The notes: generated by a model from the sequence alone, not told the origin. DNA of 64,000 nucleotides from an uncultured Rhodospirillaceae bacterium (GCA_964390005.1 CAYMGM010000003.1:14271-78270); one strand, 5' to 3'; shown: positions 5,627 through 58,747, numbered from the stretch's first letter. Made by a program: numbers and translations.

Positions 5627-5641
5627 TGCTGGCCTGATCGC
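5627..5641 (+). other. Candidate distal att core: imperfect copy of the tRNA-Ala 3' end region
   Basis: ttgctgg-cctgatcg vs ttggtggacctgatcg at 58670-58686 (tRNA 3' end, reverse strand). Confidence 0.3.
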
Positions 5642-5696
5642 ACTTGATGTGAAGAAATAACTCGTTGAATTAAAATGGAAATCGTTAAGGCAAAAA

Positions 5697-5721
5697 ACCT
5701 ATTACCCCACGATGTTACCCC
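5697..5721 (+). repeat. 25-bp direct repeat shared with 58532-58556 (candidate arm-type integrase site / island terminal repeat)
   Basis: acctattaccccacgatgttacccc vs acctattaccccacgatcttacccc (24/25). Confidence 0.5.
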
Positions 5722-5871
5722 CAATCCCCAAAACGGCCAAAACCACACCAGCTAGCCTTCGAACCAAGGACCATCATTCAACTTAAAAGGGAGATTAGCA
5801 CGAAACATCTACGCTCACAAACGACCAATCTTTGTTGCTCGTAGAAGTCCTTACAAACAACCAAGCCCCTC

Positions 5872-6690
5872 TTAAAGGCTTCTCTGTCCCGGTTTGGGTG
5901 TCGGCAATCCAGCGTGTCTTTGTTTGTTGTCGGGACGGAAGGCTGAAAACCCGTTGGGATCAAGCTCTGGCGCTACCTTTTCACCAAAAACGAAAAGAAG
6001 GTCTCGGTTTAGGCATGCTATTTGTTTTGGGCTCAGCGACCATTTTTCAAACAGCTGCGTCCTGAACGAGATCAAGCGTTCGTAATTGTTGGGATGAAGT
6101 TTGCCTTCGCCGACTTCGATGCATCGATTGAGCCAGTAACTATGCGTGTACGCAAGCATCAGCGAACGATAGCCAAACTTGCTTGATTGAACTGCAGGCG
6201 CGTTCATAAAATTGATAACAGCACGCGTTTCTCCAACGGTCAGCGATCCGGATTTGAGAAGAGCGCGGTACATCCAGGAAATCATATCGCGCTCGAGACC
6301 AACAAATCCTTGGGCTGGGAGCTTCTCTGCTCTGAGCATGACATATTCGACGGCGCTTAGATATTCGCTGTCCCTGTTTTTTTCGCCGTTGTCTGGCGTG
6401 AGTTCTGTTTCTGGTTTTCCGTTCGGAGAAGACGGTTTCTTGGGATTCTTTTTGAGACCAAGTTTGGTATAATCTTGAAATCCTTGTTTTGGAACAATAC
6501 CCCATTTCTTACCGCAGGAAGGTCCCGCTGGAACTTCGCCATAAACCGGATGTCGTAGGATCAAGGCGATGCCTGTCGGAAGATCGCGGGGGCAGAAAGC
6601 GCATTCAGCGACCGTAACGAAATCACGCCGTAAAAGAGGAAAGGCATGTTCGTTCAGGTTCGAGGTATCGATTAAAGGTTTATGAGCCAT
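5872..6690 (-). CDS. Hypothetical protein (AT-rich cargo)
   Basis: 272 aa ORF in a visibly AT-rich segment at the island's left end; no motif recognised. Confidence 0.45.
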   Translation of the reverse strand: MAHKPLIDTSNLNEHAFPLLRRDFVTVAECAFCPRDLPTGIALILRHPVYGEVPAGPSCGKKWGIVPKQGFQDYTKLGLKKNPKKPSSPNGKPETELTPDNGEKNRDSEYLSAVEYVMLRAEKLPAQGFVGLERDMISWMYRALLKSGSLTVGETRAVINFMNAPAVQSSKFGYRSLMLAYTHSYWLNRCIEVGEGKLHPNNYERLISFRTQLFEKWSLSPKQIACLNRDLLFVFGEKVAPELDPNGFSAFRPDNKQRHAGLPTPKPGQRSL

Positions 6691-6840
6691 TTTCGTGATG
6701 TCTTTATAAAATCCCGGATCCGGCTCATCCTAAATATCCCGAACGCTCTTTTTCAAGAGGATATCCTATTGGTTTCATAGAAAAAACTGCTTAATATCGG
6801 CGTTTGAATCGTATAACGCTTTATTCCAGCAAGGAAAATC

Positions 6841-7893
6841 ATGCCGCGTGTTGACCTTTGTGTCCCTTTTTCTGAAAAGGATGAAGCGAAAAAACTTGGC
6901 GCACGGTGGGATGCTGCGCACAAAGTTTGGTTTGTTCCCGAGGGGCTTGCGGCGGCACCTTTTGTACGCTGGCTGCCTGTGCCGGATGATGAGCCATCGG
7001 AGGTCCACATCACGCAACCGACCTCTTTCGATCATCCTGTTGTGCGGTACGATCCCGAACTGCCGGACGATCTTTTCAGCCCTCGACGCATCGCATCAAC
7101 GCAGGAAATTGCTGATTGCTTCTGGCAGGACGGTCGCCTTTTTCTGCTTCCGGTTCCCAAGGAAGATCAGGACCGTATTTTGGCCGCCGGAGCGCAACAA
7201 GGAGGCGGGGGCCTCTTTATAGGACGCGGGACTAATATTGATTTTGCCGCGTTAAACCCGTTTCTTCCTTTCGTCGGCAAATCCATCATCATGCCGCGCC
7301 TTGGAGATCTGATCCCCGCATCATCCTTTGGGGCCAATCTCTGCAATCTTCTGACGCGCCCCTCCTGGGACAAACTGCGGCAACGGACATTCGCCGAAAC
7401 AGATGGACGGTGTGAAATTTGCGGCTCGACCGAGCATCTGGAATGTCATGAATACTGGAAATATTTCGAGCCTCTGCCGCTCTATCTGGAAAAAGGAGCC
7501 TGTGGCGTTCAAAAGCTTGCTCGGCTTATGCCTCTTTGCGCTGCCTGTCATGAAACCTATCATCTGGGACTTGCCAACGTGCGAGGCCGATTTGAAATCG
7601 TCCGGGCACGCCTTCGCGCGATGAATCGCTGGACGGAAGAAGAGTATGCCGATTATGGAGACTTTCTTGATGAGCGCAGCGCGCGGCGCACCGAATGCTT
7701 CTGGGTTTTAGATTTTTCAGAACTGAAGGAAAGCACGCTTTCAGTCCACGACAAGTGGCGTTTGCGCCAGGATGGCTTTCTTGTCTGTAACACGCAGACA
7801 GGAACAACGGAAACCATGATCCTTGGCATTCCTTGGGAACACAGGGGCCAATCGCATGCGTTAATGGATCCCGTCATTGCGTACTACGAATGA
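6841..7893 (+). CDS. DUF5710-like N-terminal domain plus HNH-type nuclease motif protein
   Basis: 350 aa; N-terminal 'VPFSEKDEAKKLGARWDAAHKVWFVP' resembles the DUF5710 module seen at the C-terminus of TraC-type primases. Central 'CEICGSTEHLECHEYW...CAACHETYH' is HNH-like. Confidence 0.6.
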   Translation: MPRVDLCVPFSEKDEAKKLGARWDAAHKVWFVPEGLAAAPFVRWLPVPDDEPSEVHITQPTSFDHPVVRYDPELPDDLFSPRRIASTQEIADCFWQDGRLFLLPVPKEDQDRILAAGAQQGGGGLFIGRGTNIDFAALNPFLPFVGKSIIMPRLGDLIPASSFGANLCNLLTRPSWDKLRQRTFAETDGRCEICGSTEHLECHEYWKYFEPLPLYLEKGACGVQKLARLMPLCAACHETYHLGLANVRGRFEIVRARLRAMNRWTEEEYADYGDFLDERSARRTECFWVLDFSELKESTLSVHDKWRLRQDGFLVCNTQTGTTETMILGIPWEHRGQSHALMDPVIAYYE

Positions 7894-8161
7894 ACTGCTC
7901 AGTAAAAATGCACTCAATCTTTTGTCATGTGACCATTTCTGACCCATTGTGGCCCTATAAAGACAACAACATTTCCTAATTTGGTGTTTCGGAGGGGCGG
8001 ATGGATCGGGAACGGAATGCTCCCTTGCAGCCGATGGCGGACGACAGGGCGTACAAACCGGAGTTCGTTATCGTCTTCAGCGCATTGGCTATCTGCGGGG
8101 CTCTGGTTGGATTCTTGGTTGGTTATCTTTATCGATAACACAAAGGAGGCTTGGGGGCGTT

Positions 8162-11100
8162 ATGCGGAGAGACGAAGGAACAGGGCGTATTTTCTATGCG
8201 CCGACGGATTTGGTGACATATCTTGAATGTCCCTTTGCCACGTTGTTCGATCTTCAACAAACGCTTCACCCCATCAAACTTGCCAAGAGCGAAGACGATA
8301 GCGCGAAGCTTCTTGAACAAAAGGGGCTGGAACACGAACGGCACTATCTTGAACAGCTTCGGCGCGAGGACCTCTCAGTCGTCGAGATCCCGTCGAATAT
8401 TTCCATTCCTCGACGGATCGAGATGACGCGTGCGGCGCTGAAGGCAGGTCCTGATGTGATTTATCAAGCGGCGCTTGGCGACGAGGTTTGGACAGGGTTT
8501 GCCGATTTTCTTTTGAAAACAGACCGGCCTTCGGGGCTGGGGGCGTTCAGCTATGAAGTTGCCGACACGAAACTCGCCCTTTCGCCAAGGCCGGAGTTTG
8601 TCGTTCAGCTTTTTGTCTATTGCGAGCTTTTAGCCAAGGAGCAGGATCTCGTTCCACGCGATCTGCACATTGTCTTGGGCGACAAGAGCAAGGTTTCTTT
8701 GCGCCTCGACGATTTTCGCTATTATCAGAAACTGGCGCAGGAGCGGTTTCTCTCTTTCGTTGAAAAAGGACATATGCCGCAGCCGGGCGAACCTTGCGCC
8801 CATTGTGACAAGTGCCGTTGGTTGAGTCTCTGCGAAGAGGAATGGGAGCGCACGGAACATCTTTCTTTTGTCGCGAATATTCGGGGCGAGCAGATCAAGA
8901 AACTCCGCCGCGCCGGGATCAACAGCATGCGCGATCTTGCAGCCCTGCCGGAGGGGCAGTCCGTTCCAAAAATGGCGCCTGAAACGCTGGCGACATTACG
9001 TGAGCAAGCACGTCTTCAGATCGCCAAAAAGGATGATGGCGAGAATCGCTGTGTTCTTTTGCCGTTTGCCCTGCATAAGGGACTTGCGCGTCTCCCTAAG
9101 CCCAATGAGGGCGATCTTTTCTTCGATATGGAGGGCGATCCGTATTACGACAATCCCCGCCTTGAATATCTCTTTGGCTTTGTTCTTTTGAATGAGCAAA
9201 AAGAGGACGTGTTCAAACCGTTTTGGGCGCATGATCGCGCGGCAGAAAAGAAGGCGTTTGAGGACGTGATGGATTTCATCATGGCGCGGCTTGAAGCCTA
9301 TCCCGACGCCTATATCTATCATTATGCGGCTTATGAAGAGACGGCGCTCAAGAATCTTGCCATGTATCACGGCACGCGCGAGGCCGAGGTCGATCATCTT
9401 TTGCGCAATCGCAAGCTTGTCGATCTTTACAAAGTTGTGCATGAGGGCATCCGCGTTTCCGAACCGCGCTACTCGATCAAAAATCTTGAGCATTTCTATG
9501 CGGAAAAGCGCGGCGGCGAGGTCAAGACAGCGGGCGACAGCATCGTTATGTACGAAAAATGGCGCGTGTTACAGGACGATACCATCCTTCAGGAAATAGC
9601 CGATTACAACGAGTTCGATTGCCGTTCGACCCTGCAATGCCGGGATTGGCTGCTAACCCTCAGACCGGAGGAGATGGATTGGTTTGCGCCTTACACAGAC
9701 GATGCGGAGGCGCGGGAGAACGAGGCAAAGCGTCGAGAAGCAGAAGCGGCGACGGCACAGCTTGCCGCGAACCTGACAAACAGCGTTTCGGAACAGGAAG
9801 CAGCATGGCGCGGTCTTTTAGGGCAGCTCTTGACCTTTCACCGACGTGAAGCAAAGCCGGGATGGTGGGCCTTCTTCACGCGGCGCGATCTAACGGACAA
9901 GGAGCTTATCGACGACGCGGAATGCCTTGGAAAATGTGAACGCGATATATCAGCGCAACCCTATAAACTCGGCCCACGTGACAGGTCTCTGGTTTACGAA
10001 TACAGGTTTCCGCCCCAAGACACAAAAATGCGAGAGGAGTATGATCCGGTCAATGCCTTCACCGGCAAGCGGATCGGTAAGATCGTTGGCCTTGATCGAA
10101 AAGGCGGCAAGGTTGCCCTTAAAATCGGAGACAAGCAGGCAAACCCGCCCGATCTTCTTTCGCTTATCCCGCAGAAACCGATTGAAAATAACGATATTCG
10201 TGGGGCCATCGGACGCTATGCCGAGGCTGTTGCAAGCGGAAGCGTCTCGCGTTACGCGGCCATTACGAGCATCCTGCGCCGTGATTTGCCTCGCCTTTCG
10301 GGGAGGGCTGAGGGGGCAAGCATACTTGGGCAAGGGGATGACACAACGTCGGCCTGTATCGATGCGGTCGGACGCCTCGACAACAGCCATTTGCTGATCC
10401 AAGGTCCGCCCGGAACGGGGAAGACCTATACCTCGTCTCATGCGATTGTTGCCCTTTTGAAGGCTGGAAAACGTGTCGGCGTTGCCTCGAATGCGCATAA
10501 GGCGATCAACAATTTGTTGGAGGCTGTTGAGAAGGAAGCCGAAAAACAGAACGTCAGATTCCGAGGCGTCAAAAAATGCACATATGACGATCATGCGCTT
10601 GCCAGCCGAGGGTTTATCGAGAACACGACAGACCTTAAACAGGCCGAAAGCGGCGGCTATAGCCTTGTCGCAGGCACGGCGTGGCTCTTTTCGCGCGTAG
10701 CGTTTGATCAAACGCTAGATTATCTCTTCGTTGACGAGGCAGGACAAGTCAGCCTCGCCAATGTCGTCGCAATGGGAACGGCGGCGCGCAATATCGTGCT
10801 TGTCGGCGATCAGATGCAGCTTGCTCAGCCAATCCAAGGCGCCCATCCGGGGCAATCCGGCCTTTCGGCTTTGGAATATCTTTTAGGGGACGCGGCAACG
10901 GTTCCGCCCGAACGCGGTATTTTTCTTGCCACGACGCGCCGCATGCATCCAGCCTTGTGCGGTTTTATCTCTGCCGCCGTTTATGAGGGCAAACTGCTTC
11001 CCGAACTCGACAATGCGCGCCGCCATCTTGTGGTGAACGGGCCGGAGGAAGATGAGGCTATTGTTCCGGCAGGCATTCGGTTTATCGAGGTTGAGCACGA

Positions 11101-11584
11101 AGGATGTTCGCAAAAAAGCGAAGAGGAAGTGGAACGTTTAAAAGCCACCTATGATCGCTTGCTTGGCATGAAGTGGGTGGATGAGACCGACGAGGAGCAT
11201 GTGATCGGCAAGGAAGATATCCTTGTCGTCTCGCCCTACAACATGCAGGTCAACGAGCTGCAAAAAGCGCTTGGCCCCGACGCGCGTGTCGGCACGGTGG
11301 ATCGTTTTCAGGGGCAGGAAGCGCCCGTTGTTTTGATCTCGATGGCGACATCGTCAGGCGAGGAGCTTCCGCGCGATATCGAGTTCCTTTTCAGCCGCAA
11401 CCGCCTGAACGTGGCCATCAGTCGCGCAAAATGTTTGGCCGTCCTTTACGCCAACCCGCGTCTCCTCGAAATCCCCTGCAGCACCATCGACCAGATGCGC
11501 CTTGTCAATACGCTTTGCTGGGTTCGTGCTTATGCGCATGCGTTCGGTGGGGGAGAAGTGGTAATTAGCGCGGCAGTGGCTTGA
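8162..11584 (+). CDS. Nuclease-helicase fusion: Cas4/RecB-like PD-(D/E)xK nuclease with Fe-S Cys cluster, TM0106-type RNaseH-like domain, C-terminal Upf1/Dna2-like SF1 helicase (Nhi-like defence candidate)
   Basis: 1140 aa; 'EVADTKL' D-x-K, 'C..CAHCDKCRWLSLC' 4-Cys cluster, 'FFDMEGDPYYD' DxE, Walker A 'LIQGPPGTGKTYT', 'VDEAGQ' motif II, 'VDRFQGQE' motif V/VI. Confidence 0.75.
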   Translation: MRRDEGTGRIFYAPTDLVTYLECPFATLFDLQQTLHPIKLAKSEDDSAKLLEQKGLEHERHYLEQLRREDLSVVEIPSNISIPRRIEMTRAALKAGPDVIYQAALGDEVWTGFADFLLKTDRPSGLGAFSYEVADTKLALSPRPEFVVQLFVYCELLAKEQDLVPRDLHIVLGDKSKVSLRLDDFRYYQKLAQERFLSFVEKGHMPQPGEPCAHCDKCRWLSLCEEEWERTEHLSFVANIRGEQIKKLRRAGINSMRDLAALPEGQSVPKMAPETLATLREQARLQIAKKDDGENRCVLLPFALHKGLARLPKPNEGDLFFDMEGDPYYDNPRLEYLFGFVLLNEQKEDVFKPFWAHDRAAEKKAFEDVMDFIMARLEAYPDAYIYHYAAYEETALKNLAMYHGTREAEVDHLLRNRKLVDLYKVVHEGIRVSEPRYSIKNLEHFYAEKRGGEVKTAGDSIVMYEKWRVLQDDTILQEIADYNEFDCRSTLQCRDWLLTLRPEEMDWFAPYTDDAEARENEAKRREAEAATAQLAANLTNSVSEQEAAWRGLLGQLLTFHRREAKPGWWAFFTRRDLTDKELIDDAECLGKCERDISAQPYKLGPRDRSLVYEYRFPPQDTKMREEYDPVNAFTGKRIGKIVGLDRKGGKVALKIGDKQANPPDLLSLIPQKPIENNDIRGAIGRYAEAVASGSVSRYAAITSILRRDLPRLSGRAEGASILGQGDDTTSACIDAVGRLDNSHLLIQGPPGTGKTYTSSHAIVALLKAGKRVGVASNAHKAINNLLEAVEKEAEKQNVRFRGVKKCTYDDHALASRGFIENTTDLKQAESGGYSLVAGTAWLFSRVAFDQTLDYLFVDEAGQVSLANVVAMGTAARNIVLVGDQMQLAQPIQGAHPGQSGLSALEYLLGDAATVPPERGIFLATTRRMHPALCGFISAAVYEGKLLPELDNARRHLVVNGPEEDEAIVPAGIRFIEVEHEGCSQKSEEEVERLKATYDRLLGMKWVDETDEEHVIGKEDILVVSPYNMQVNELQKALGPDARVGTVDRFQGQEAPVVLISMATSSGEELPRDIEFLFSRNRLNVAISRAKCLAVLYANPRLLEIPCSTIDQMRLVNTLCWVRAYAHAFGGGEVVISAAVA

Positions 11585-11624
11585 AGGGCAAAGGATTTTA
11601 GACGTTTGTTATCAGGAAAGACTC

Positions 11625-12503
11625 TCAGTTTTTTTGTGCTTCACTCGAAGAAGAAAGGTATTTTTGGAAGAAGCCATCAGGAGCATCGTGTTCTGCACAA
11701 CAATAGGCGCGCTCCGCAGCTTGTGAAACAACTTCGCGGTTAACCCGTTTTACAATATCGCTGGGGGCGGATGCCAACAGAAGCCTCTTCGCTTTTGAGT
11801 CAGGCTTGAAGGCGAAAAAGATATGGCGTGGCGTTAGCGGTAGAACAATTACACAATTCGGATCATTTAGGCCCGTCGTAAATAGACAAGGTCTATCTGA
11901 TGTTAAAATACGGTTAGACGCATGGAATGCGTCCATCAAGAACCAATCCATCGACAAAATATCGCTTAAAACGTTTGAATTCGAAATGATTTTAGGAAGT
12001 TGTTTAACGCCAATATTTTCGATAAGCGCAGGGTGGTTTATTTCTACCCAGTCTTTCAGACTTTCGGGTACTTCCCCATTTAATGAGGTTGAGTCTGGTG
12101 AGCTCTTGCCTTCAAGATAATCTGAAAATTGATCGCGGAGTGTTGTTTTGATTCTTGTTACAGTTTCCGGATTTCTGATTTTCATGCTCGAGATAAATTG
12201 AGCCCATCGGATCTTTTCTTTTTTGGTTAAAGGGGCGCCCGAGATAAACTTTGCTTTTATTTCCGCTCCTGCATTATCGATCGGTTTAAAAAACCTCGTT
12301 TCAATCTCAGATCTATCTGAGGCATGAAATGCTTTTGAATATGCATATAGAAAATCCCTATACCCCGTTCCTTTGGGGGCTTTCTGTCTTTTTGAAATTA
12401 TCCCGTCAAAATTTCTAATTTCCCAAAGCTCATGGGTTCCATGTGCTACCCATGATTTCAGGTAAAACTGCGGAACAAAGTGGTGCTTCGTTGAAGTTGC
12501 CAT
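11625..12503 (-). CDS. DUF4238-like protein (defence-island associated family); true start at internal Met
   Basis: Starts MATSTKHHFVPQFYLKSW, which is the HxVPxFYL signature I associate with DUF4238; AGGA RBS 9 nt upstream; the long N-terminal extension in the ORF track is rejected. Confidence 0.6.
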   Translation of the reverse strand: MATSTKHHFVPQFYLKSWVAHGTHELWEIRNFDGIISKRQKAPKGTGYRDFLYAYSKAFHASDRSEIETRFFKPIDNAGAEIKAKFISGAPLTKKEKIRWAQFISSMKIRNPETVTRIKTTLRDQFSDYLEGKSSPDSTSLNGEVPESLKDWVEINHPALIENIGVKQLPKIISNSNVLSDILSMDWFLMDAFHASNRILTSDRPCLFTTGLNDPNCVIVLPLTPRHIFFAFKPDSKAKRLLLASAPSDIVKRVNREVVSQAAERAYCCAEHDAPDGFFQKYLSSSSEAQKN

Positions 12504-12550
12504 TATAATTTTTCCTGCTTGATATCGATTTGAAGCATGATGTCTTTTGG

Positions 12551-13540
12551 TTACGGTAGTCCATCCCATTTCCGCTGTGCGCCAGTCACCATCTTTCGGA
12601 GCGCCGACGGTTTTATCACTTCGACCTGATCGCCCCACATGTAGAGGTGCCATGTCATTTCCAAGAGCCCGCCCGCGCGGAAACGCACGATGAGCGCGCC
12701 ATCCTTTTTCTCTTCCGTTTTCTGGTTTGGATGAAAGACAAACTCTCTCGCGGCTTGTGCCGCCTTGGGCGTGAACTTCCAGACGATGTCTTGTGGTTTC
12801 TCCATCCATACGCCGAAGGATTGGTCGGCATAGGCCTGAAGATCGAACGTAGGATCGCGATGAAAGCCGTCTTTCGTGACGGTAACGCTTTCAATTTGCG
12901 AGAGGATGAAATGATACCGCGCGGCCTCGCGGCCTTTTTCGGTTCCGCCGCCGACTAGATAGTGCCGGTGGCCATAGAGAAAGCCATAGGGCGCAACGCG
13001 CTTTATCTCGGCTTGCGGTTTGCCCTTTGCATGATAGAGAATCTCGACAATCTTGCAGGCTTTGATCGCTTCGCGAAGCGCATGCAGGTGCTCGGCATTC
13101 AATTTAGGCCGGGGGCCGGGGCGCGTGGCAAGACCTTCGGCTTCGATCAGTGCTTCAAGGTCAGGTTCAACCCGGCGCGAGACGTCGCATTTCTGAAGCG
13201 TTTTGATCTTTCCGCAAAGCGACCGCAGAGCCTTCGCTTGCAAACCAAGCCCGCGTCCAGCAAAGGCCTTCGTCGCCATATCAAGGCTGGCCAGCTCGTC
13301 CGGCGTCAAGGCTAAATGCCGCCCGTTGGTCGAGGACGGGATCCGCCAACGTTTGATCCTGTTTTCATCCGTTGTCTCATCGACCTGCGGATAAACGCGC
13401 ACCACGGCATCGCGCATGCGCATGGCCGTGCGGCGGGAGACGTCAAACATATCGATGATTTCCGTGAGGGTGACACCTTCGGCATTCGACTGCATGGCAA
13501 ACGCGAGGTTCAGTAGGTCTTCGGCTTTTTCGAAACGCAT
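12551..13540 (-). CDS. WYL-domain transcriptional regulator (HTH-WYL-WCX; BrxR/CapW-like)
   Basis: 'GVTLTEIIDMFDVSRRTAMR' wHTH; WYL domain 'PYGFLYGHRHYLVGG'; C-terminal WCX-like 'WHLYMWGDQVEVIKP'. Start taken at MRFEKAEDLL. Confidence 0.75.
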   Translation of the reverse strand: MRFEKAEDLLNLAFAMQSNAEGVTLTEIIDMFDVSRRTAMRMRDAVVRVYPQVDETTDENRIKRWRIPSSTNGRHLALTPDELASLDMATKAFAGRGLGLQAKALRSLCGKIKTLQKCDVSRRVEPDLEALIEAEGLATRPGPRPKLNAEHLHALREAIKACKIVEILYHAKGKPQAEIKRVAPYGFLYGHRHYLVGGGTEKGREAARYHFILSQIESVTVTKDGFHRDPTFDLQAYADQSFGVWMEKPQDIVWKFTPKAAQAAREFVFHPNQKTEEKKDGALIVRFRAGGLLEMTWHLYMWGDQVEVIKPSALRKMVTGAQRKWDGLP

Positions 13541-13826
13541 CGACAATCCCCAACAAAAACACTGGGGAAGAGCCTGCCACAAGTGATCCGGTTGGCCAAG
13601 AGCGCATGTGACCGGAATTGTCATGTCCGGGTGCTAGAATAGAAAGCGTTAACAGAGTGGTGTGCCATGAAGCCATTAAAACTTGTCCCGTCAAAAGGTC
13701 TTGAAATGCTTTTGAGTGCATTCGGCATTCTGGGGACTATGGAGGCGAGAAAGACCAAAAAAGCCAAATACACGAACTATATCCTTGTCTATGGCCCCGA
13801 TAATAAGGTCCAAACTGTTGAAACCA

Positions 13827-13860
13827 TAAAATAACGGGATCAACCAATTATAAAATAACG
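13827..13860 (+). promoter_or_regulatory. 11-bp direct repeat (ataaaataacg x2, 12-bp spacer) in the divergent WYL / SNF2-operon intergenic region; candidate operator
   Basis: Seen directly; lies ~95 bp upstream of the SNF2 start. Confidence 0.25.
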
Positions 13861-13954
13861 ATTATTTGTCTTAATGGGCTGTCCTTGGCTGTTCTTTTGT
13901 TTTAATATTTCGCCACAAAATCGGGCAGGCTAAGCGAATCAGAGATCGGAAGAA

Positions 13955-44285: not shown

Positions 44286-44364
44286 GAAGATATTAACCGG
44301 CGTTAGTTAGGGGATCTTTAATTTTTGAGAGGGGAGATAAAAAAATCAATCCAGCAATAATGGA

Positions 44365-44694: not shown

Positions 44695-44744
44695 TTTATA
44701 GCCGCCTTTGCAAAATTATTAACCTATTTCACCATGTTCCCATG

Positions 44745-46368: not shown

Positions 46369-46380
46369 AAGGACATTTCC

Positions 46381-46689: not shown

Positions 46690-46958
46690 TGAACGCATCT
46701 CCTCATCTCGAGGGATTTGAAATCCCCGTTCATCGCGCGCTGACCGAGCCTCTTCTGCTCGGCGGCGCACCCCGCGCCGTCGCCATCCTGAACGGCACGT
46801 TGGCCGCCGCCATCGGTTTGGGCCTCCAGCAATGGATCGCAGGACTTGGCCTGTTCGTCGCGGGGCAGACGCTCGCAGTCTTCGCCGCCAAGCGCGACCC
46901 GGACTTTCTGGCGGTTCTGGTCCGTCATCTGCGGCAACGGGGGTGGCTCGGATGTTGA
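46689..46958 (+). CDS. trbD: TrbD (VirB3-like)
   Basis: 89 aa from MNASPHLEGFEIPVHRAL; overlaps trbC stop. Confidence 0.8.
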   Translation: MNASPHLEGFEIPVHRALTEPLLLGGAPRAVAILNGTLAAAIGLGLQQWIAGLGLFVAGQTLAVFAAKRDPDFLAVLVRHLRQRGWLGC

Positions 46959-50091: not shown

Positions 50092-50097
50092 GGCATC

Positions 50098-51375: not shown

Positions 51376-51378
51376 TCC

Positions 51379-52098
51379 ATGTTTTTTAAACGCCCGATCC
51401 AACGTTATGGCAGTACGCCGAAACCTGTTACGCCTTATCAGAAAGCCGAACAGCTTTGGGATGAACGCATCGGCTCGGCCCGCGTCCAGGCCAAGAACTG
51501 GCGGTTCATGGCCTTCGGCTGCTTCGCCCTGTCTGCTTGTCTCTCGGCGGCGCTTGTCTGGCAGGGAATGCAAAGCCGTGTTGTGCCGTATGTGGTCGAG
51601 GTGGACAAGCAGGGCGAAACCCGCGCCGTGGCGCCCGCGCTTCAGGATTACAAGCCCGCCGATGCGCAGATCGCGTGGTATCTGGCGCAGTTTATCGGTC
51701 AGGTGCGCTCGGTTTCGACCGATCCGGTTCTTGTGCGCAAAAACTGGCTTGGCGCTTACGATTTTGCAGGCGAACGCGCCGCCTTGTTTCTGAACGCCTA
51801 TGCCCGCAAGGCCGATCCCTTCGGTCAGATCGGCACGCGCAGCGCCTCGGTTCAGGTGACCAGCGTGATGCGCGCCTCCGATACGTCCTTTCAGGTCAAA
51901 TGGATCGAACAGATCTTCGAGCGCGGTTCTCTGGTCCGCACCGAACGCTGGAGCGCGATCCTCGCCGTCGCCCTTCAGCCGCCGCGCACGGCGGAGCAAC
52001 TCCGTAAAAACCCGCTCGGCCTTTACGTCACGGCCATCGACTGGGCGCGCGAACTCGATCCCGCAACAAATCCTCAAACCAAGGAGTCCGTTCCATGA
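51379..52098 (+). CDS. trbF: TrbF (VirB8-like)
   Basis: Single TM then NTF2-like domain. Confidence 0.85.
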   Translation: MFFKRPIQRYGSTPKPVTPYQKAEQLWDERIGSARVQAKNWRFMAFGCFALSACLSAALVWQGMQSRVVPYVVEVDKQGETRAVAPALQDYKPADAQIAWYLAQFIGQVRSVSTDPVLVRKNWLGAYDFAGERAALFLNAYARKADPFGQIGTRSASVQVTSVMRASDTSFQVKWIEQIFERGSLVRTERWSAILAVALQPPRTAEQLRKNPLGLYVTAIDWARELDPATNPQTKESVP

Positions 52099-53087
52099 GA
52101 AAGTTTCTCGTTCTCTCTGTCTCCGCGCTTGCGCTTGCCGCCTGCGCGGACAAGCCGCCGACAATCGCCTACGACCCGGAGCCTGCAATGGTGGCCCCGG
52201 AGCCGCCCAAACCCATCCAGATCGTGGAAGTCCCGAAGGTTTTGGCGCTGCCCGGCCAGCTTCAGCCGGAACCCGGCAAACGTAAGACGGACACACGCCC
52301 ACCCATGGAGCGGGTCACGGCGGCGAACAAGGCGGCCACGCGCGAGCCGACCAAGTTTGGTTATCTCAACGCCATTCAGGTCTATCCCTTTGCCGAGGGC
52401 GCGCTCTACCAGCTTTATGCCGCGCCGGAGCATGTGAGCGACATCGCCTTGCAACCCGGCGAGAAGCTGACCTCCGTTTCCTCCGGCGATACCGTGCGCT
52501 GGGTCATCGGCGACACGACAAGCGGCTCGACGGACGGCCAGCAGGTTCACGTTCTGGTCAAACCCTTTGCGCCGGATCTCAAGACGAACCTCGTCATCAC
52601 GACCGACCGGCGGTCCTATCACCTGCAACTGGAAAGCACGACCAAGACTTTCATGGCCGCGCTGTCTTGGACCTATCCGCAGGATCAGTTAACGGCATTG
52701 CGCAGACAGAACGGCGAAGCCGCCGCTGCGGAACCCGTGGCGACGGGGATTGCGCTTGAGAAGATTCATTTCCGCTACGAGGTCACCGGCGACGATCCGC
52801 CATGGAAGCCCGTGCGCGCTTTCGATGACGGGCAAAAGGTCTATATCGAGTTTCCGCGCCGGATCGATCAGGGTGAAGCGCCGCCGCTCTTTATCGTGGG
52901 GCCCAACGGCGACAATGAACTCGTGAACTATCGCATGCGCGGCAATTATTACGTCGTGGATCGTCTGTTTGGGGCCGCCGAGCTTCGGCTCGGCACGGAT
53001 CCGCAGCAGATCGTGCGCATCAACCGCACCGACGCGCCGGATCAAAAAGAGCAACCCGCACCGCGCAAGAACTGGGGGCGGTCATGA
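52095..53087 (+). CDS. trbG: TrbG (VirB9-like)
   Basis: Lipoprotein-like signal 'LALAACADKPP'; overlaps trbF stop. Confidence 0.85.
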   Translation: MRKFLVLSVSALALAACADKPPTIAYDPEPAMVAPEPPKPIQIVEVPKVLALPGQLQPEPGKRKTDTRPPMERVTAANKAATREPTKFGYLNAIQVYPFAEGALYQLYAAPEHVSDIALQPGEKLTSVSSGDTVRWVIGDTTSGSTDGQQVHVLVKPFAPDLKTNLVITTDRRSYHLQLESTTKTFMAALSWTYPQDQLTALRRQNGEAAAAEPVATGIALEKIHFRYEVTGDDPPWKPVRAFDDGQKVYIEFPRRIDQGEAPPLFIVGPNGDNELVNYRMRGNYYVVDRLFGAAELRLGTDPQQIVRINRTDAPDQKEQPAPRKNWGRS

Positions 53088-54256
53088 ACGAGAAGATCGA
53101 CGCGAACAAGCTCGAACTACGCGCGGCCCCGCCGCACCGCGTGGTGCGGTTTAAAAAAGGTCTTGTGATCGGCCTCACGGCCTTTGGCATCGGCCTTCTC
53201 CTCTGCGTGACCATGCTGGCGCTGCGCAAGCCGTCGTTTCGGGCGCCAACCGAGGCGCAGGAGCTTTATGACACGCAAAAGAAGCCGACCCCCGACGGGC
53301 TTGCCGCTCTGCCGGGGGACTATAGCCAGCTCCCCCCCAAACCCGTTCTGGGGCCGCCCCTACCGGGCGATCTTGGGCGGGCCGTTCTAGCCCATCAACG
53401 CGCCGAGGGCATCGGGCATACGCAATCGGAACAGGAACAGCGGCTGGCCCAACAGGCCGTGCAAGCGGAAGAATCTGGCGTCTTCTTCCGGATCGAGAGC
53501 AAGCCAAGGCAGAACGCGACGGGGGCCTCGGCGCAACAAGCCGCCGCGACGGTTGCAGAACAGCCGAAAGACGCCCGGTTGGCGCTTGATCCGGATCACG
53601 ACCAGAACAATCAGCAGCGCAAGCTGGACTTCGTGAACCAGCGCGATGCGGGCAGCATCTACAATCCGCATGCCCTGCAGACGCCGGCCTCGCCTTATCA
53701 AGTCATGGCGGGCAGCCTCATCGCGGCAAGCCTGATCACGGGTATCAATTCCGACCTGCCGGGGCTTGTGGTCGCGCAGGTCACCGAGAACGTTTACGAC
53801 ACACCGACGGGCCGGACCTTGCTCATCCCGCAGGGCAGTCGTTTGATCGGCGCCTATGACAGCGTGGTCGCCTATGGCCAATCCCGCGCCTTGCTCGTCT
53901 GGCAGCGCATTGTGATGCCGGACGGCTCTTCCGTCCAGATCGACAATCTGCCCGCGACCGACGCGCAAGGCTATGCCGGGCTCGAGGACGGGGTGGATTA
54001 TCACACCTGGCAGCTTCTCAAGGGTGTGGCGCTTTCCACCTTGCTCGGCATCGGCACGCAACTCAGCCTCGGTGGAAACGAAAGCGATCTTGTCCGTGCC
54101 ATCCGCGAATCCACCCAGCAAAACGTCTCGCAGGTCGGCCAGCGCATTACCGAAAAGAACATCAACATCCAGCCGACCATCACGATCCGGCCCGGCTGGC
54201 CCGTGCGCGTCATCGTGCACAAGGACCTGATCCTCAAACCTTATCGTGGGGCCTGA
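53084..54256 (+). CDS. trbI: TrbI (VirB10-like)
   Basis: TM, Pro-rich region, C-terminal VirB10 domain. Confidence 0.85.
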   Translation: MNEKIDANKLELRAAPPHRVVRFKKGLVIGLTAFGIGLLLCVTMLALRKPSFRAPTEAQELYDTQKKPTPDGLAALPGDYSQLPPKPVLGPPLPGDLGRAVLAHQRAEGIGHTQSEQEQRLAQQAVQAEESGVFFRIESKPRQNATGASAQQAAATVAEQPKDARLALDPDHDQNNQQRKLDFVNQRDAGSIYNPHALQTPASPYQVMAGSLIAASLITGINSDLPGLVVAQVTENVYDTPTGRTLLIPQGSRLIGAYDSVVAYGQSRALLVWQRIVMPDGSSVQIDNLPATDAQGYAGLEDGVDYHTWQLLKGVALSTLLGIGTQLSLGGNESDLVRAIRESTQQNVSQVGQRITEKNINIQPTITIRPGWPVRVIVHKDLILKPYRGA

Positions 54257-54259
54257 TCC

Positions 54260-54574
54260 ATGCTGAAACTTCCCAAACTGCCCGACCGCACGCCGATCAA
54301 GATCACAGTCACCGTGAACGCAGCCCTCAATCAAGCGCTTCACGGCTACGCCGCCCTTTATCGCGCGACTTATGGCGAGATGGCCTCCGTGCCCGATCTG
54401 ATCCCGTTCATGCTGGACTGTTTCCTGAAAAGCGATCCTGCCTTCGCCAAGGCCTTGAAGGAAGGTTTGCTGGAAAACGAACAGGAAAAGCCCCTCGGGC
54501 GCACAGGGCGTAAACGTGGCGAAACCCCCGCAATCCAGAACGCCCCACCCACATTGCAACCGAAGGAGGCCTGA
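54260..54574 (+). CDS. DUF2274-family protein
   Basis: 104 aa immediately after trbI, as in related ICEs. Confidence 0.7.
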   Translation: MLKLPKLPDRTPIKITVTVNAALNQALHGYAALYRATYGEMASVPDLIPFMLDCFLKSDPAFAKALKEGLLENEQEKPLGRTGRKRGETPAIQNAPPTLQPKEA

Positions 54575-54575
54575 T

Positions 54576-54893
54576 ATGCAAATCGGCAGCTTCACCTTAT
54601 CCAAAGACGGCGGTTGGACAGGATGCGTCCACACGCTGACCATGGACCGGAAAATCCGCCTTGTTCCCAACGACGACCGCGCGAACGACAAAGCTCCAGC
54701 GTTCCGCATCCTCGTCGGAAACTTCCGCATCGGCGAGGCCTGGGAGGCCAGAACCACAGGCGAAGCGCCCAAGGCCTATTTGCGCCTGCGCCTCGACGAC
54801 CCCAGCCTGTCCGAGCCGCTCAACGCCGCGCTGTTCCCATCCGACGACGGCGCCAAAGCCCAGCTCGTCTGGAACCGACGGAGGGGCGAATGA
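54576..54893 (+). CDS. DUF736-family protein (second copy)
   Basis: MQIGSFTLSKDGGWTGCVHTLTMDRKIRLVPND...APAFRILVG. Confidence 0.7.
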   Translation: MQIGSFTLSKDGGWTGCVHTLTMDRKIRLVPNDDRANDKAPAFRILVGNFRIGEAWEARTTGEAPKAYLRLRLDDPSLSEPLNAALFPSDDGAKAQLVWNRRRGE

Positions 54894-55084
54894 CCGACAA
54901 GCTGCATCTCCGCACGCCCGAAGCCGCCGACTATCTCGGCCTCAGCGCCTCCACCATGGAAAAAATGCGCCTACGCGGCGACGGACCGAGGTACGCCAAG
55001 CTTGGCAGGCTGGTCGTTTACGCCATCGCTGATCTTGAGGCGTGGGTCGACGCACGGAAGAGAATGTCAACGTCGGAGGAGTGA
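54890..55084 (+). CDS. Helix-turn-helix (AlpA/excisionase-like) protein
   Basis: 'LRTPEAADYLGLSASTMEKMRLRGDGPRY'. Confidence 0.65.
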   Translation: MTDKLHLRTPEAADYLGLSASTMEKMRLRGDGPRYAKLGRLVVYAIADLEAWVDARKRMSTSEE

Positions 55085-55337
55085 AAGTAATCTGATATGA
55101 GCCGAACTACACAGGCTTATGGGCGCTATGGTTAAAAGGCGTTTGAAATATCCAGCGTTTTCGAGCTTCTTCGTTAAAGTAAGGGCATTGTTAAAGAAAA
55201 AATAACCAACCCATTGAACAAGCTTGGAAATTTGTTTTTCCGGCATTTTTTTGTTAACATGCCTCATACAGGAACGCCATACAACACGATTAATAAATTA
55301 TTAACGAAACTATTGCTCACCCCCATAGGAGAACGGT

Positions 55338-55958
55338 ATGTTTGACGCACGGCAGATTTTATCTTCACTTTCCATTTTTCGAGGCCTTATGCCCGCTGCC
55401 AACGCGCATAGCTATTCCCCGCCTTTTGAGGTTGAGCTTTTTGTTCATCCTCGAAAAGAAGAGGAATGCGTGCGCCCTGCCGTCGGAAGAGAAGAAGAAA
55501 TCCCCTGCCTTAAGGGACAGCATACGTCAGCTGCCGGGGTTGTGGTTGTCGATGGCCAAGAGGTTAAAGTCGAAGAAACAAAAGATGTTGTTCCTTGGGA
55601 GACCCTTTACCTTGTGAACGGAAATATCGTTGCCGTTCATAATGATTACGATTCAGACACAGAGCAAACGACCTGTGATTTAGGCTTTGCCCGTTACGTC
55701 GAAAGCATCCGTGATCGCGGAGGCGATTTCAGCACATCAAGCACCGTAGGAACGAACAGCCCCGACGGTAGAGTGTTGTACCTGTCTTTACGCGACGAGC
55801 AAGCGCTGTATCGTGTCCTTGTCGATGAGAGACAGAACATCGTCATCCCGCTTTATCCAAAAGCTGAAGGAAACTTTCGTCCAAACCCTAAACATCCCCG
55901 CGTAAAAAAACGCAAACCATCTGATATTTCTGACCTCTTCGCAAAATTGATCCAATAA
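55338..55958 (+). CDS. Hypothetical protein (AT-rich cargo)
   Basis: 206 aa ORF in AT-rich block between ICE backbone and integrase. Confidence 0.45.
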   Translation: MFDARQILSSLSIFRGLMPAANAHSYSPPFEVELFVHPRKEEECVRPAVGREEEIPCLKGQHTSAAGVVVVDGQEVKVEETKDVVPWETLYLVNGNIVAVHNDYDSDTEQTTCDLGFARYVESIRDRGGDFSTSSTVGTNSPDGRVLYLSLRDEQALYRVLVDERQNIVIPLYPKAEGNFRPNPKHPRVKKRKPSDISDLFAKLIQ

Positions 55959-55977
55959 CTCTCGCCGAGCGGGGAAC

Positions 55978-56892
55978 GTGGACATGTTTGCGGGGCGAAA
56001 GACAGCGCGCGGGGTTAATGCGCAAATTGATCGACGGGTTATAAAATATGGCCCCCGGAAAGCCTTCCGTGTTTGTGGGCGGCTTATGCTCTCATCCGGG
56101 CCTCATGAAAAATACCTCGACGATGTCGAACCCGGCTTTTCAAAGAACGACATACGAGCAGAGTTTCAAGCGGCTGCTTTTGAAACAACGATTATCGGAA
56201 AAACACCCATTGGACGTTATGTCTTCCGAAAGGACCGTATATATGTCCACTTCGGGAAGCTTTATCCGGGAAAGAAAAACGAAAGAAAGCGACAGAAGGA
56301 AACAGAGGCCGTCGAAAGCCACATTTCAAGACTTTTTGTATGTTCTTCGAATGGCCACGCCCATACCGCTGTTTGCGGGGCGAACAAGAAGAGAATCTTC
56401 TATCGTGTGGAATTGCATGCGCTGGCGGTTGATATACCGGACCTTATTGATGCGCTTCTGAAAAACGACGACATAACGCATGTCAACGAAGTCCCTGTCG
56501 ACAAAATCCGTACGCTTTATAACACAGGCAAGCATGATGCGGCGTATCGCCTGATCTGTTTGAGCGAATTACGGTTGATGGCGCGTTGTGCAAGACGCGC
56601 CGAGGAAAAGAGCAAAACGGCTTTGGCACTTTGGTTCTGGAAAGAGTATGCCGAACGCAAAGAGCTATATCTGTTGGAGCGCAAGGATGCCTGGGGCTCG
56701 GATCCAAAAGGGATGCGACCAATCTACAATCTTGATGCAAATGCCCGGTTGCTTCGTCGAAACAAGATTCTTGATGGGTTTAAGGCCCGCATACTTGCAC
56801 GAGCGGCTGCGGCAGGAAAGGCTATCTCCAAAAGGACTTTCGCGCCTATGACCGTGCGGACAATCCGCGGACAAGCCCTTGCCCTGTTATAA
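55978..56892 (+). CDS. Hypothetical protein (AT-rich cargo)
   Basis: 304 aa ORF. Confidence 0.45.
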   Translation: MDMFAGRKTARGVNAQIDRRVIKYGPRKAFRVCGRLMLSSGPHEKYLDDVEPGFSKNDIRAEFQAAAFETTIIGKTPIGRYVFRKDRIYVHFGKLYPGKKNERKRQKETEAVESHISRLFVCSSNGHAHTAVCGANKKRIFYRVELHALAVDIPDLIDALLKNDDITHVNEVPVDKIRTLYNTGKHDAAYRLICLSELRLMARCARRAEEKSKTALALWFWKEYAERKELYLLERKDAWGSDPKGMRPIYNLDANARLLRRNKILDGFKARILARAAAAGKAISKRTFAPMTVRTIRGQALALL

Positions 56893-57027
56893 TCCCGCCT
56901 GAGCAACACGCTCTTATGTCTTTAAAGGGGGTAACGGGATACATCGTCGTAGATAAAGGCCCTAAGCATTTTCTCCGTCTTGCGCGATCATGACCACCAC
57001 GATCAATCGCTCACACGACGGTGTAAA

Positions 57028-57267
57028 ATGATGCAGAACCCAATTGACGAAATCCTGAGCAAAATCGACGACCGCACACGCCTGTTGCGCCTTAAAGAGG
57101 TCATAGAAATTGTCGGCATGAAGAGATCGACAATCTATGAACACATTCAGGCCTCAAGCTTTCCTCGCCCTATAAATATTGGCCCTCGAGCCGTGGCGTG
57201 GTTGAATACAGACATTCAGGCTTGGATAGCGCAGCGGGTGATGTCCGACGGACCCAAGCGGCTTTGA
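57028..57267 (+). CDS. alpA: AlpA-family phage/ICE regulatory protein (HTH)
   Basis: 'RLLRLKEVIEIVGMKRSTIYEHIQASSFPRPINIGPRAVAW'. Confidence 0.65.
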   Translation: MMQNPIDEILSKIDDRTRLLRLKEVIEIVGMKRSTIYEHIQASSFPRPINIGPRAVAWLNTDIQAWIAQRVMSDGPKRL

Positions 57268-57316
57268 CCTACTCCCATCCCTTTTCGGGCGTCGAAAATA
57301 TCTGCAAGAAGAGGGG

Positions 57317-58507
57317 TTATTTTTTCCCTCTGAGCTTGTCCAGATAGTCCGCCCATTTCTGCATCATCTTCCTGCGTTCAGCCAAATGTGCCGTTCGGTT
57401 ATAGGCGCGCCCGTTCGGGTCGCGAACGGCATGGGCGAGCTGATGCTCGATATAGTCCGGGCGAACATGTAGAACTTCGTCAAGAATTGTGCGAGCCATG
57501 GCGCGGAAACCGTGACCCGACATTTCGTTTTTTTCGAACCCCATGCGCCGCAGCGCACCGAGAACGGCATTTTCGCTCATGGGGCGTTGGCTTGATATGG
57601 CGCTGGGGAAGACGTATTTGCCCTTGCTCGTTAGAGGCTGCAGCTCCGTTAAAATATCCACGGCTTGGCGCGAGAGGGGGACAAGATGCGGCTCGCGCAT
57701 TTTCATGCGTTCAGCCGGAATGTTCCATTCGGCAGCCTTCAGGTCTATTTCCTGCCATTCCGCGTTACGAAGCTCCCCCGGACGGACAAAAACAAGCGGC
57801 GCCAGACGCAAGGCGCAACGCGTCACCAGATTTCCGTTGTAGGCGTCTATGGCCCTTAAAAGCCCGCCGATGGCCTTGGGATCTGTGATGGCGGCAAAAT
57901 GGCCTTCTTTGATTGGGGAAAGGGCTCCGCGCAAATCGATGCTGCAGTCCCGTTCGGCACGCCCGGTCGCCACCGCATAACGCAACACCTGACCACAGTT
58001 CTGTAAAGCCCGATGGGCTGTATCAATGGCTCCGCGTTTCTCAATGCGACGGATGACATCCAAAAGCTCATAAGGCTTAATGTCGCCGACGGGACGGCTT
58101 CCTATCCAAGGAAAGATATCGGCCTCAAGACGGCGAATGATTTTCTCGGCGTGGGCTTCGGCCCAAATCGAGGAGCGCCGTTCAAACCATTCTCTGGCAA
58201 CGACCTCGAATGTGTTTTTCTGGCCATCGGCCTTTGTTAGCTTGACCTGTTTACGGTTAAGGGAAGGGTCAATATCGAAAGCGATGTTTTTTCGTTCCTG
58301 ATCGCGGCGGACTCTGGCTTCTTTAAGGGTGATCTCGGGGTAGACGCCCAAGGAGAGCAGCTTCTCTTTGCCGCCGAAGCGGAACTTCAGCCGCCACCAC
58401 TTGTTTCCCGTGGGTGTTACCAAGAGAAACAGACCATCGGAATCATAGATTTTATAAGGCTTTTTGCGGGGTTTTGCGCTGCGAACGGCAGTGTCGGTAA
58501 GGGACAT
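57317..58507 (-). CDS. int: Tyrosine recombinase / integrase (P4-like)
   Basis: 396 aa; N-terminal 'LTDTAVRSAKP...YKIYDSDGLFLLVTPTGNKWWRLKFRFGGKEK' P4-int signature; adjacent to the tRNA 3' end. Confidence 0.9.
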   Translation of the reverse strand: MSLTDTAVRSAKPRKKPYKIYDSDGLFLLVTPTGNKWWRLKFRFGGKEKLLSLGVYPEITLKEARVRRDQERKNIAFDIDPSLNRKQVKLTKADGQKNTFEVVAREWFERRSSIWAEAHAEKIIRRLEADIFPWIGSRPVGDIKPYELLDVIRRIEKRGAIDTAHRALQNCGQVLRYAVATGRAERDCSIDLRGALSPIKEGHFAAITDPKAIGGLLRAIDAYNGNLVTRCALRLAPLVFVRPGELRNAEWQEIDLKAAEWNIPAERMKMREPHLVPLSRQAVDILTELQPLTSKGKYVFPSAISSQRPMSENAVLGALRRMGFEKNEMSGHGFRAMARTILDEVLHVRPDYIEHQLAHAVRDPNGRAYNRTAHLAERRKMMQKWADYLDKLRGKK

Positions 58508-58531
58508 TGGGGTAACTCCATATGTCAGATC

Positions 58532-58556
58532 ACCTATTACCCCACGATCTTACCCC
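58532..58556 (+). repeat. 25-bp repeat, partner of 5697-5721 (candidate arm-type site between int and the tRNA)
   Basis: acctattaccccacgatcttacccc. Confidence 0.5.
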
Positions 58557-58671
58557 AAAAAATCTTCGGCTGCCACCGGATTTCGCCGGAGCGCAATAGC
58601 CGAAAACGCGGCCTTTTTATTGGGTTTTTCGTGATTTTCCGGATGGTGCCGGATGCCTTCGGAAGGGTTTT

Positions 58672-58747
58672 TGGTGGACCTGATCGGGATCGAACCGACG
58701 ACCTCAACATTGCGAACGTTGCGCTCTCCCAGCTGAGCTACAGGCCC
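58672..58747 (-). tRNA. tRNA-Ala (anticodon CGC)
   Basis: Reverse complement GGGCCTGTAGCTCAGCTGGGAGAGCGCAACGTTCGCAATGTTGAGGTCGTCGGTTCGATCCCGATCAGGTCCACCA; G3:U70, loop TTCGCAA, TPsiC GGTTCGATCC, CCA encoded. Confidence 0.85.

Follow-up and report, generated by a model that had tools for sequence, protein, structure and literature searches.

A probable 53-kb integrative and conjugative element with defense cargo at a tRNA-Ala gene of an uncultured Rhodospirillaceae bacterium

Genes and features of the locus

The window analyzed here is a 64,000-nucleotide (nt) stretch of DNA from an uncultured Rhodospirillaceae bacterium (CAYMGM010000003.1:14271-78270), and the coordinates of the element are counted from its first letter. 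Between two flanks lies a region of about 53 kb that differs from them in composition, and the gene content, repeats and comparisons described below indicate that positions 5627 to 58686 probably represent a single integrative and conjugative element (ICE), integrated into the 3' end of a tRNA-Ala(CGC) gene by means of a P4-type tyrosine integrase (Table 1). The left flank encodes a SpoU methylase, a HAD hydrolase, an alpha/beta hydrolase and a zinc alcohol dehydrogenase (4162-5205), the last of which is followed by a strong terminator hairpin. The right flank, beyond the tRNA gene, encodes YggT, FolD, a glycosyltransferase and an M23 peptidase. Within the element, the G+C content of the distal cargo is approximately 0.42 to 0.56, and that of the ICE core is mostly 0.58 to 0.65, with low-GC patches near 35 and 43 to 45 kb.

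The conjugative backbone begins with the gene of an 89-amino-acid (aa) protein (23095-23364), a DUF2285 (FseA-like) gene, a ParB-like gene, an SNF2/methylase gene of the Strawberry notch type, a toprim DUF7146 gene and a DUF736 gene. Both PF10074 and PF20109 were detected within 23681-24520 in the DUF2285 gene, consistent with an FseA-type activator. The transfer part encodes an SLT protein (38117-38746) adjoining the DUF3363 relaxase, the TraG coupling protein, TrbB, TrbC and TrbE, and the backbone ends with an open reading frame (ORF) at 49333-50091, TrbL, TrbF (VirB8 domain), TrbG (CagX domain), TrbI, DUF2274, a second DUF736 and an HTH_17 protein. In a comparison with the rdfS-traF-msi107-rlxS operon of the ICESym/ICEMlSymR7A family, only this adjacency of the SLT and relaxase genes was seen, and two ORFs upstream of the SLT gene (36703-37248 and 37535-38014) had no family matches. 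The ORF at 49333-50091 stands at the position of trbJ and had no Pfam match, and neither TrbD nor TrbJ was separately identified. The relaxase, the T4SS-DNA_transf (TraG) coupling protein and the mating-pair-formation set place the element among the MPF_T/Trb ICEs, in which an element's own integrase and attachment (att) sites enclose the conjugation genes, as they do here (arms at 5627-5780 and 58508-58686). Most of the Trb genes, and those of the integrase, relaxase and coupling protein, are present as full-length ORFs that match their families strongly. A plasmid DNA search with the right end of the ICE returned only matches of ~65% identity to the Trb operons of plasmids; an unannotated Niveispirillum locus was dropped from the comparison.

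As the initial annotation had noted, the integrase gene (int) adjoins the tRNA-Ala gene at its 3' end, the int start codon lying 164 nt from that end. The integrase matched Arm-DNA-bind_3 (1e-23), Phage_int_M (8e-38) and Phage_integrase (2e-16) in Pfam, and scored 289 bits against NCBIfam NF007246, below the cutoff of 434 bits. An N-terminal Arm-DNA-bind_3 domain is typical of P4-type heterobivalent integrases; arm-binding and catalytic domains, a repeat of the tRNA end (imperfect in the window) and a conserved motif in both arms are all present here, as in other heterobivalent att systems. Two candidate directionality factors are encoded next to int. The AlpA-family protein likely starts at the MMQNP methionine near 57028, and the HTH_17 protein showed a weak match to TIGR01764 ("excise").

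Homologs of the integrase number in the thousands in a homology search. For the integrase-side arm, nine loci with integrases 80% to 98% identical to that of the window were fetched, and a tRNA-Ala gene adjoins int in all nine. Among the loci compared, L004 (CBCZUR010000012.1; integrase 86% identical) is a minimal element of ~2.2 kb, and L005 (83%) is a small mobilizable island that has the FolD-YggT-tRNA-Ala-int synteny in common with the window, i.e., it occupies the same chromosomal site. The contigs of L016 (88%) and L018 (81%) stop right after int and thus provide proximal arms only. L021 encodes a TrbI and an integrase 93% and 98% identical to those of the window, and its trbI-DUF2274-DUF736-HTH_17-AlpA-int genes, with AlpA directly adjoining int, lie within 4.6 kb together with an identical 25-mer and the tRNA end, which indicates that the integrase belongs to the ICE. 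A sister ICE (L023/L030; TrbI 88% identical) sits at tRNA-Cys and has a 20-nt direct repeat of the tRNA-Cys 3' end at both of its ends. A Ralstonia megaplasmid encodes the best match in a plasmid protein search with the integrase as the query (59% identical); this search was of use for motif covariation only.

Paired GGGGTAA motifs in the two arms

The initial annotation had reported near-identical 25-mers in direct orientation just inside each end and had proposed them as arm-type integrase sites on the P and P' arms. Both 25-mers were found exactly at those positions, on the plus strand, with 24 of 25 bases identical, and the similarity around them reaches 46 nt at 78% (repeat D5). No such pair arose by chance in 100 dinucleotide-preserving shuffles, even with three mismatches allowed. 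Each 25-mer contains TTACCCC twice, 13 nt apart. The 7-mer occurs seven times in the window on either strand (TTACCCC or GGGGTAA), with five occurrences at the two 25-mer spots, including one that is inverted at the int start codon; the other two lie in the left chromosomal flank (2446-2452) and at 56928-56934. The latter, a GGGGTAA, precedes the alpA ORF by about 50 nt; it may link the expression of alpA to the integrase, or it may be due to chance.

Upstream of int, the paired motif was present in all nine loci as GGGGTAA-N6-GGGGTA(ATAGGT), followed after ~20 nt by (T/C/A)TACCCC just before the ATG. The inverted unit before the ATG is conserved among loci including L004, L005, L007, L016 and L018. 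The proximal region of L021 is nearly identical to that of the window. No sigma-70-like promoter was found in either arm by a promoter scan. Near the tRNA end, the window has a CCGGATG-N3-CCGGATG direct repeat (58640-58658), and relatives have GACGTC(C/T)-N5-(G/A)ACGTCT at this position instead (L004 9853-9872 and the equivalents in L005 and L007). This variable second pair of short repeats may represent directionality-factor sites or core-proximal binding sites.

The repeated word changes together with the integrase. Relative to the window, the sister ICE at tRNA-Cys has an AlpA that is 76% identical and an HTH_17 protein that is 87% identical, and an integrase of only 37% identity; both of its arms carry GGGTACC-N5-GGGTMCY, as opposed to GGGGTAA-N6-GGGGTAA in the window. 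Upstream of the Ralstonia integrase, the same layout is found with another word, GGGGGTT-N6-GGGGGTT, and the inverted AACCCCC lies further downstream, ~45 nt before the ATG. In the minimal element L004, the only ORF besides int contains neither an AlpA nor an HTH_17 domain, yet both motif pairs are kept. Since the word varies with the integrase and the target while AlpA and HTH_17 stay similar, the motif follows the integrase, as predicted for arm-type sites. These sequence comparisons support the interpretation of the GGGGTAA pairs as candidate arm-type integrase sites.

Distal end of the element

At the distal end, TGCTGG-CCTGATCG (5628-5641) aligns with the tRNA end TGGTGGACCTGATCG with 13 matches, 1 mismatch and 1 gap, and the distal 25-mer follows 55 nt from this core. 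The same arrangement was found in L004, in which int and the short ORF are followed by GGGGGTAACATCATGGGGTAGCAGT and, 62 nt later, by CGATCAGGCCACCAA, a copy of the tRNA end with the same 1-nt deletion as the distal core of the window. The reverse complement of 5627-5780 aligns with L004 over ~150 nt, with ~88% identity over the block around the 25-mer (window 5697-5775), and the similarity ends at the core. A scan of metagenome contigs with a pattern consisting of the paired motif, 45 to 75 nt and CGATCAGG yielded one further case, contig Ga0326728_10001124 (L019), which contains GGGGTAATATATTGGGGTAATAAGG, then 55 nt, and then a perfect 15-nt core copy, GCGATCAGGTCCACCA. L019 has no tRNA gene nearby, and housekeeping methylases lie beyond its core copy. 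The three distal copies all diverge from the tRNA right after CCTGATCG, which indicates that the core consists of the terminal 15 nt of tRNA-Ala. The resemblance to the tRNA end that the initial annotation had pointed out is therefore real; weak by itself, it is upheld by its context and by its recurrence in the independent relatives L004 and L019. The repeats and the imperfect copy of the tRNA end are thus confirmed as observations, and their interpretation as marks of both ends of a ~53-kb element is supported.

Other pattern scans were less informative. A scan of genome contigs with the pattern GGGGTAANATCRTGGGGTA was too specific and returned seven matches, mostly chance hits in unrelated phyla, and the matches in Azospirillum and Sandaracinobacter were uninformative. 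In viral contigs, the distal-arm pattern had no matches. Tandem islands were also considered, with the distal 25-mer left over from the region upstream of a second integrase; this was rejected because no int remnant is found next to it and because the core is on the opposite side, with a spacing that is conserved.

A relic of defense genes lies immediately outside the element. In this degenerate sequence, the C terminus of DrmD is fused directly to the N terminus of the Type III methylase, with 83% to 93% identity to 16375-16852 and 18203-18281 inside the element, and its end coincides exactly with the start of the distal core. In the intact methylase gene (mod), the corresponding positions (18273-18282) read TTTTGGTGGA, which matches the tRNA end TTTTTGGTGGACC. 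The simplest reading of these sequences is that an older island with the same kind of Type III system once occupied this tRNA gene and was mostly deleted by recombination between a pseudo-site and the true att site. The end of the relic at the core supports 5632/5633 as a genuine recombination joint and supports serial occupancy of the site. The string GGTTCGATTC (5301-5320, ~5305-5314), located between the terminator of adh and the relic, resembles a T-loop in the orientation opposite to that of the tRNA; an inverted tRNA fragment was rejected because of the absence of stem complementarity, and the resemblance is probably due to chance. In the sister ICE, a 99-aa integrase fragment with only an Arm-DNA-bind_3 domain (L023 18411-18710) lies just outside the att site and is a trace of an earlier island at the tRNA-Cys gene.

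Table 1. Positions of the features of the tRNA-Ala element in the 64,000-nt window
Feature	Position	Strand	Evidence
tRNA-Ala(CGC), integration target	58672..58747	-	ARAGORN
Proximal core, terminal 15 nt of the tRNA (plus strand, TGGTGGACCTGATCG)	58672-58686		
Integrase-proximal arm (P' arm), from the int start codon to the tRNA 3' end	58508..58671		Aligned with L004, L005 and L007
Proximal 25-mer with two TTACCCC units, candidate arm-type sites	58532..58556	+	
Inverted GGGGTAA unit over the int ribosome-binding site and start codon, candidate autorepression site	58509..58515	+	
P4-type heterobivalent tyrosine integrase, 396 aa	57317..58507	-	Pfam
AlpA-family small DNA-binding protein, candidate recombination directionality factor	56980..57267	+	Pfam Phage_AlpA, 7e-19
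Second low-GC cargo patch with two ORFs of unknown function, between HTH_17 and AlpA	55100..56950		
HTH_17/excisionase-like protein, second candidate directionality factor	54890..55084	+	Pfam HTH_17
ICE backbone	23095..55084		Pfam; gene order recurs in L021, L023, L026 and L030
Distal cargo (defense genes)	5872..23066		Pfam, PADLOC
Distal 25-mer with two TTACCCC units, candidate arm-type sites	5697..5721	+	
Distal arm (P arm)	5642..5780		Homologous to the L004 distal arm
Distal imperfect core (attL core), TTGCTGG-CCTGATCG	5627..5641	+	
Relic of DrmD C terminus and Type III methylase N terminus, outside the element	5332..5632	+	Repeats D1, D2, D3 and D16

Defense genes and other cargo

The distal cargo begins with an ORF of unknown function (272 aa), a DUF5710 protein, an MkoA-like RNaseH/SF1 helicase (8162-11584), a DUF4238 protein and a WYL regulator. 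These are accompanied by a DrmD-like SNF2 helicase (13955-16891; PADLOC DrmD, 1.5e-207), a Type III methylase (18203-19888; MTase_III, 4.5e-218) and a Type III restriction enzyme (20412-23066; REase_III, 4.8e-229), and both the Mod and Res components of a Type III restriction-modification system are thus present. The helicase at 8162-11584 contains an RNase_H_2 domain, and its match to MkoA is partial and covers only the C-terminal helicase region (2e-42). A Mokosh system combines MkoA with a PLD-nuclease partner or domain, and no PLD domain was found with Pfam or PADLOC. Between drmD and mod, a low-GC (0.42) two-gene insertion (16867-18206) encodes an unknown 283-aa ORF and a SocA/Panacea-domain protein. 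The relic copy lacks this insertion, which therefore looks like a later, toxin-antitoxin-like insertion into the operon.

The initial annotation had described a ~53-kb element with the defense island as its distal cargo, and this description is supported by the absence of an internal arm and by the variability of the same slot among relatives. No second arm-like motif was found elsewhere in the window even at two mismatches, no second copy of the tRNA end was found between 5.8 and 58.5 kb even at two to three mismatches, and a Pfam scan of all the larger ORFs of the window revealed no second integrase. The stop codons of the Type III restriction gene (23066) and of the 89-aa backbone gene are only 28 nt apart, too little space for an internal att site. 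The arm of the sister ICE is ~270 nt from the 89-aa gene with nothing in between, and in the relative L027/L028 the same slot holds a reverse transcriptase and a weak match to the bAvd family. These results support the location of the 17-kb defense cluster in a variable cargo slot that extends from the distal arm to the first backbone gene, inside the only recognizable ends.

The patch between the HTH_17 and AlpA genes suggests that a second cargo region exists close to the integrase end. Its two ORFs (206 and 304 aa; G+C content, 0.47 to 0.50) had no family matches, and the patch is absent in L021, in which HTH_17 and AlpA are adjacent. In the sister ICE (L023), HipA and an AEP/DEAD helicase are encoded in a neighboring slot, between AlpA and int. 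The backbone of the sister ICE also contains other defense-type cargo (L023 1-2750; L030 18419-20105), namely, an AAA_12 plus PLDc_2 protein, an AAA_11 protein and AbiEi/AbiEii.

Alternative explanations

Several observations weigh against a single element with two functional ends. With a 108-nt query and harsh scoring, the distal core ties with four other places in the window and is insignificant alone; with a 30-nt query centered on the tRNA end, it is the best of 2,520 windows and was reached in none of 5,000 shuffles. The similarity of the core is thus equivocal alone, and the case rests on context and comparison. The distal repeat, on whose presence in other copies of the island the initial annotation had made its reading depend, occurs in L004 and L019; L005 is the exception, since its proximal motif is present and no distal arm or core was found within 11 kb. 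For the Ralstonia island, no distal partner was found within 21 kb, and these two cases indicate that distal arms can be lost. Neither the junction of the circular form (attP) nor the empty site (attB) was recovered from public data. For attB, the flanking adh and YggT proteins were looked up by exact match, and the only contigs obtained came from the same or near-identical genomes; these contigs break at the relic repeat or where the tRNA ends. Logan contigs of several runs (the starts of L002 and L003 and the ends of L021 and L001) are interrupted precisely at the 3' end of tRNA-Ala or within the relic repeat, which fits assembly-graph branching at repeated or variable junctions; attB or attP junctions may be present among the raw reads. 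The distal core itself differs from the tRNA end by one substitution and one deletion, and these differences may lower or abolish excision if they fall within the strand-exchange region. Together with the loss of distal ends in the family, they raise the possibility, a minority one that nonetheless deserves consideration, that the architecture is as described and the element is now fixed, its distal core having decayed so that the layout is historical. However, the 1-nt deletion is common to L004, which suggests that it was inherited in attP and is not a sign of decay; a run of eight identical bases (CCTGATCG) is preserved, the 25-mers are still nearly identical, and most Trb genes, like those of the integrase, relaxase and coupling protein, are full-length. 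The occurrence of the same deletion in two elements of different hosts (the window and L004) has also prompted a more elaborate and slightly less probable proposal, which is offered tentatively. According to it, the deletion would define a heritable attP half-core, strand exchange would occur at the very CCA terminus of the tRNA gene and immediately past it, and the mod relic would be an integrase-mediated deletion between a pseudo-att site in the mod gene of the older island and the true att site, so that the integrase would prune and replace defense islands at this site.

The function of the GGGGTAA pairs and the unity of the locus can also be read differently. The pairs might act as operators that bind a regulator or a directionality factor (AlpA or HTH_17), or be conserved int promoter elements that were duplicated at the far end, given that the proximal pair and the inverted unit lie where the promoter, operator and ribosome-binding site of int are expected, that one copy of the 7-mer precedes alpA, and that directionality factors also bind direct repeats in att arms, e.g., TorI in KplE1 (PMC2951348). 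This explanation is improbable, since the motif varies along with the integrase and AlpA and HTH_17 are still 76% and 87% identical, L004 keeps both pairs next to an ORF with neither domain, there is no gene that the distal pair could regulate, the distance of this pair from the core is fixed in three elements, and no sigma-70-like promoter was found over the 25-mer. A composite locus, in which only the ICE proper (~23 to 58 kb) is mobile and the defense cluster is a separate, older tRNA-Ala island or chromosomal DNA, is less probable still and indeed very unlikely. It could account for the G+C content of the defense cluster, which at ~0.5 differs from the 0.58 to 0.65 of most of the ICE core (a further point against a uniform element), for the earlier occupation of the site recorded in the relic, and for the small nonconjugative islands (L004 and L005) that use the same integrase family and the same tRNA. 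However, no second arm-like motif or core was found from 5.8 to 58.5 kb even at two to three mismatches, the larger ORFs include no second integrase, the only homolog of the distal arm is 5627-5780, the 28 nt between the restriction gene and the first backbone gene leave the cluster contiguous with the ICE, and the arm of the sister ICE lies directly beside the 89-aa gene, which indicates that the defense cluster occupies the element's own cargo slot. The difference in G+C content indicates that the cargo was acquired separately from the ICE core.

Predicted attachment sites and recombination

If the locus is a single ICE bounded by these two arms, as is preferred here, the attP of the circular form would be ~320 bp long and would run from int through the 164-nt arm and the 15-nt core (the last 15 nt of the tRNA) into the ~140-nt distal arm. 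Each arm of this attP would carry a GGGGTAA pair, 13 nt apart, and a third, inverted unit would lie over the int start. The expected attP junction would read ...CCGGATGCCTTCGGAAGGGTTTT-TGGTGG(A)CCTGATCG-CACTTGATGTGAAGAAATAAC..., and the expected attB junction would read ...GGTTGGGGCCTCGGATTT-TG(S)TGG(A)CCTGATCG-GGATCGAACCGACGACC....

The N-terminal domain of the integrase would bind the GGGGTAA units and its catalytic domain the cores, so that arm-core bridging could bring about integration; excision would use the same bridging with the addition of AlpA, the HTH_17 protein or both. The units beside int, when occupied, may also repress int. Any integrase-mediated excision would take the defense genes along with the ICE, and these genes would then take part in its predicted transfer.

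Comparison with known elements

The design of the element is conventional for elements of this kind: a tRNA-integrating ICE with a heterobivalent integrase, arm-type repeats in both arms and defense cargo. The closest known system is IntS/attP of ICEMlSymR7A from Mesorhizobium japonicum R7A, an ICE with a 283-bp attP and five required IntS arm-type sites, in which IntS autorepresses (PMC11963761). The element in the window resembles it as an alphaproteobacterial-type ICE with a tyrosine integrase encoded beside a tRNA gene junction, in the predicted few-hundred-base-pair attP with repeated arm motifs on both sides of the core, and in the probable location of the int promoter in an att arm (PMC11963761); a DUF2285 (FseA-like) regulator and a DUF3363-type relaxase module with an SLT gene are also common to both. 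The two differ in the target (tRNA-Phe in ICEMlSymR7A and tRNA-Ala in the window) and in the motif (TGKTGGTATC five times, as opposed to paired GGGGTAA) (PMC11963761). In addition, ICEMlSymR7A is 502 kb long, carries symbiosis cargo and encodes RdfS far from int, whereas the element in the window encodes AlpA and HTH_17 beside int and is known from its sequence alone.

Satellite phage P4 has the same integrase architecture, a tRNA 3'-end target and an AlpA-family partner. P4-type islands and KplE1 IntS likewise have the Arm-DNA-bind_3 architecture, integration into a tRNA 3' end, int beside the intact tRNA gene and an AlpA-family partner. In KplE1 the IntS arm sites overlap the intS promoter (PMC2951348), as the proximal sites probably do here. 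However, these are phage or satellite islands without conjugation genes, and they use other motifs and targets. With the Tn4371-family or Trb-type (MPF_T) ICEs, the element has in common the DUF3363 relaxase, TraG, TrbB, TrbC, TrbE, TrbL, TrbF, TrbG, TrbI, DUF2274 and the ParB-like protein. Tn4371-type elements have a different integrase and a short target that is not a tRNA gene. ICEs of the SXT/R391 group carry hotspots with defense systems as cargo, and the element resembles such hotspots in having antiphage systems in a variable slot of a conserved conjugative backbone, with cargo that differs among relatives. Compared with the SXT/R391 hotspots, its backbone belongs to another family and its slot directly adjoins the att arm.

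These results leave the current picture of how such elements function unchanged; they provide exact ends, together with candidate integrase sites, for a family of Trb-type ICEs that is widespread among metagenomic Alphaproteobacteria. For annotation, the family can be described as a shared backbone with interchangeable integrase/attP cassettes (tRNA-Ala or tRNA-Cys) and a variable cargo slot beside the arm. The predicted boundaries would place the DrmD/Type III restriction-modification, MkoA-like helicase and WYL/DUF4238 genes inside the mobile unit, and these defense genes may therefore be able to spread by conjugation.

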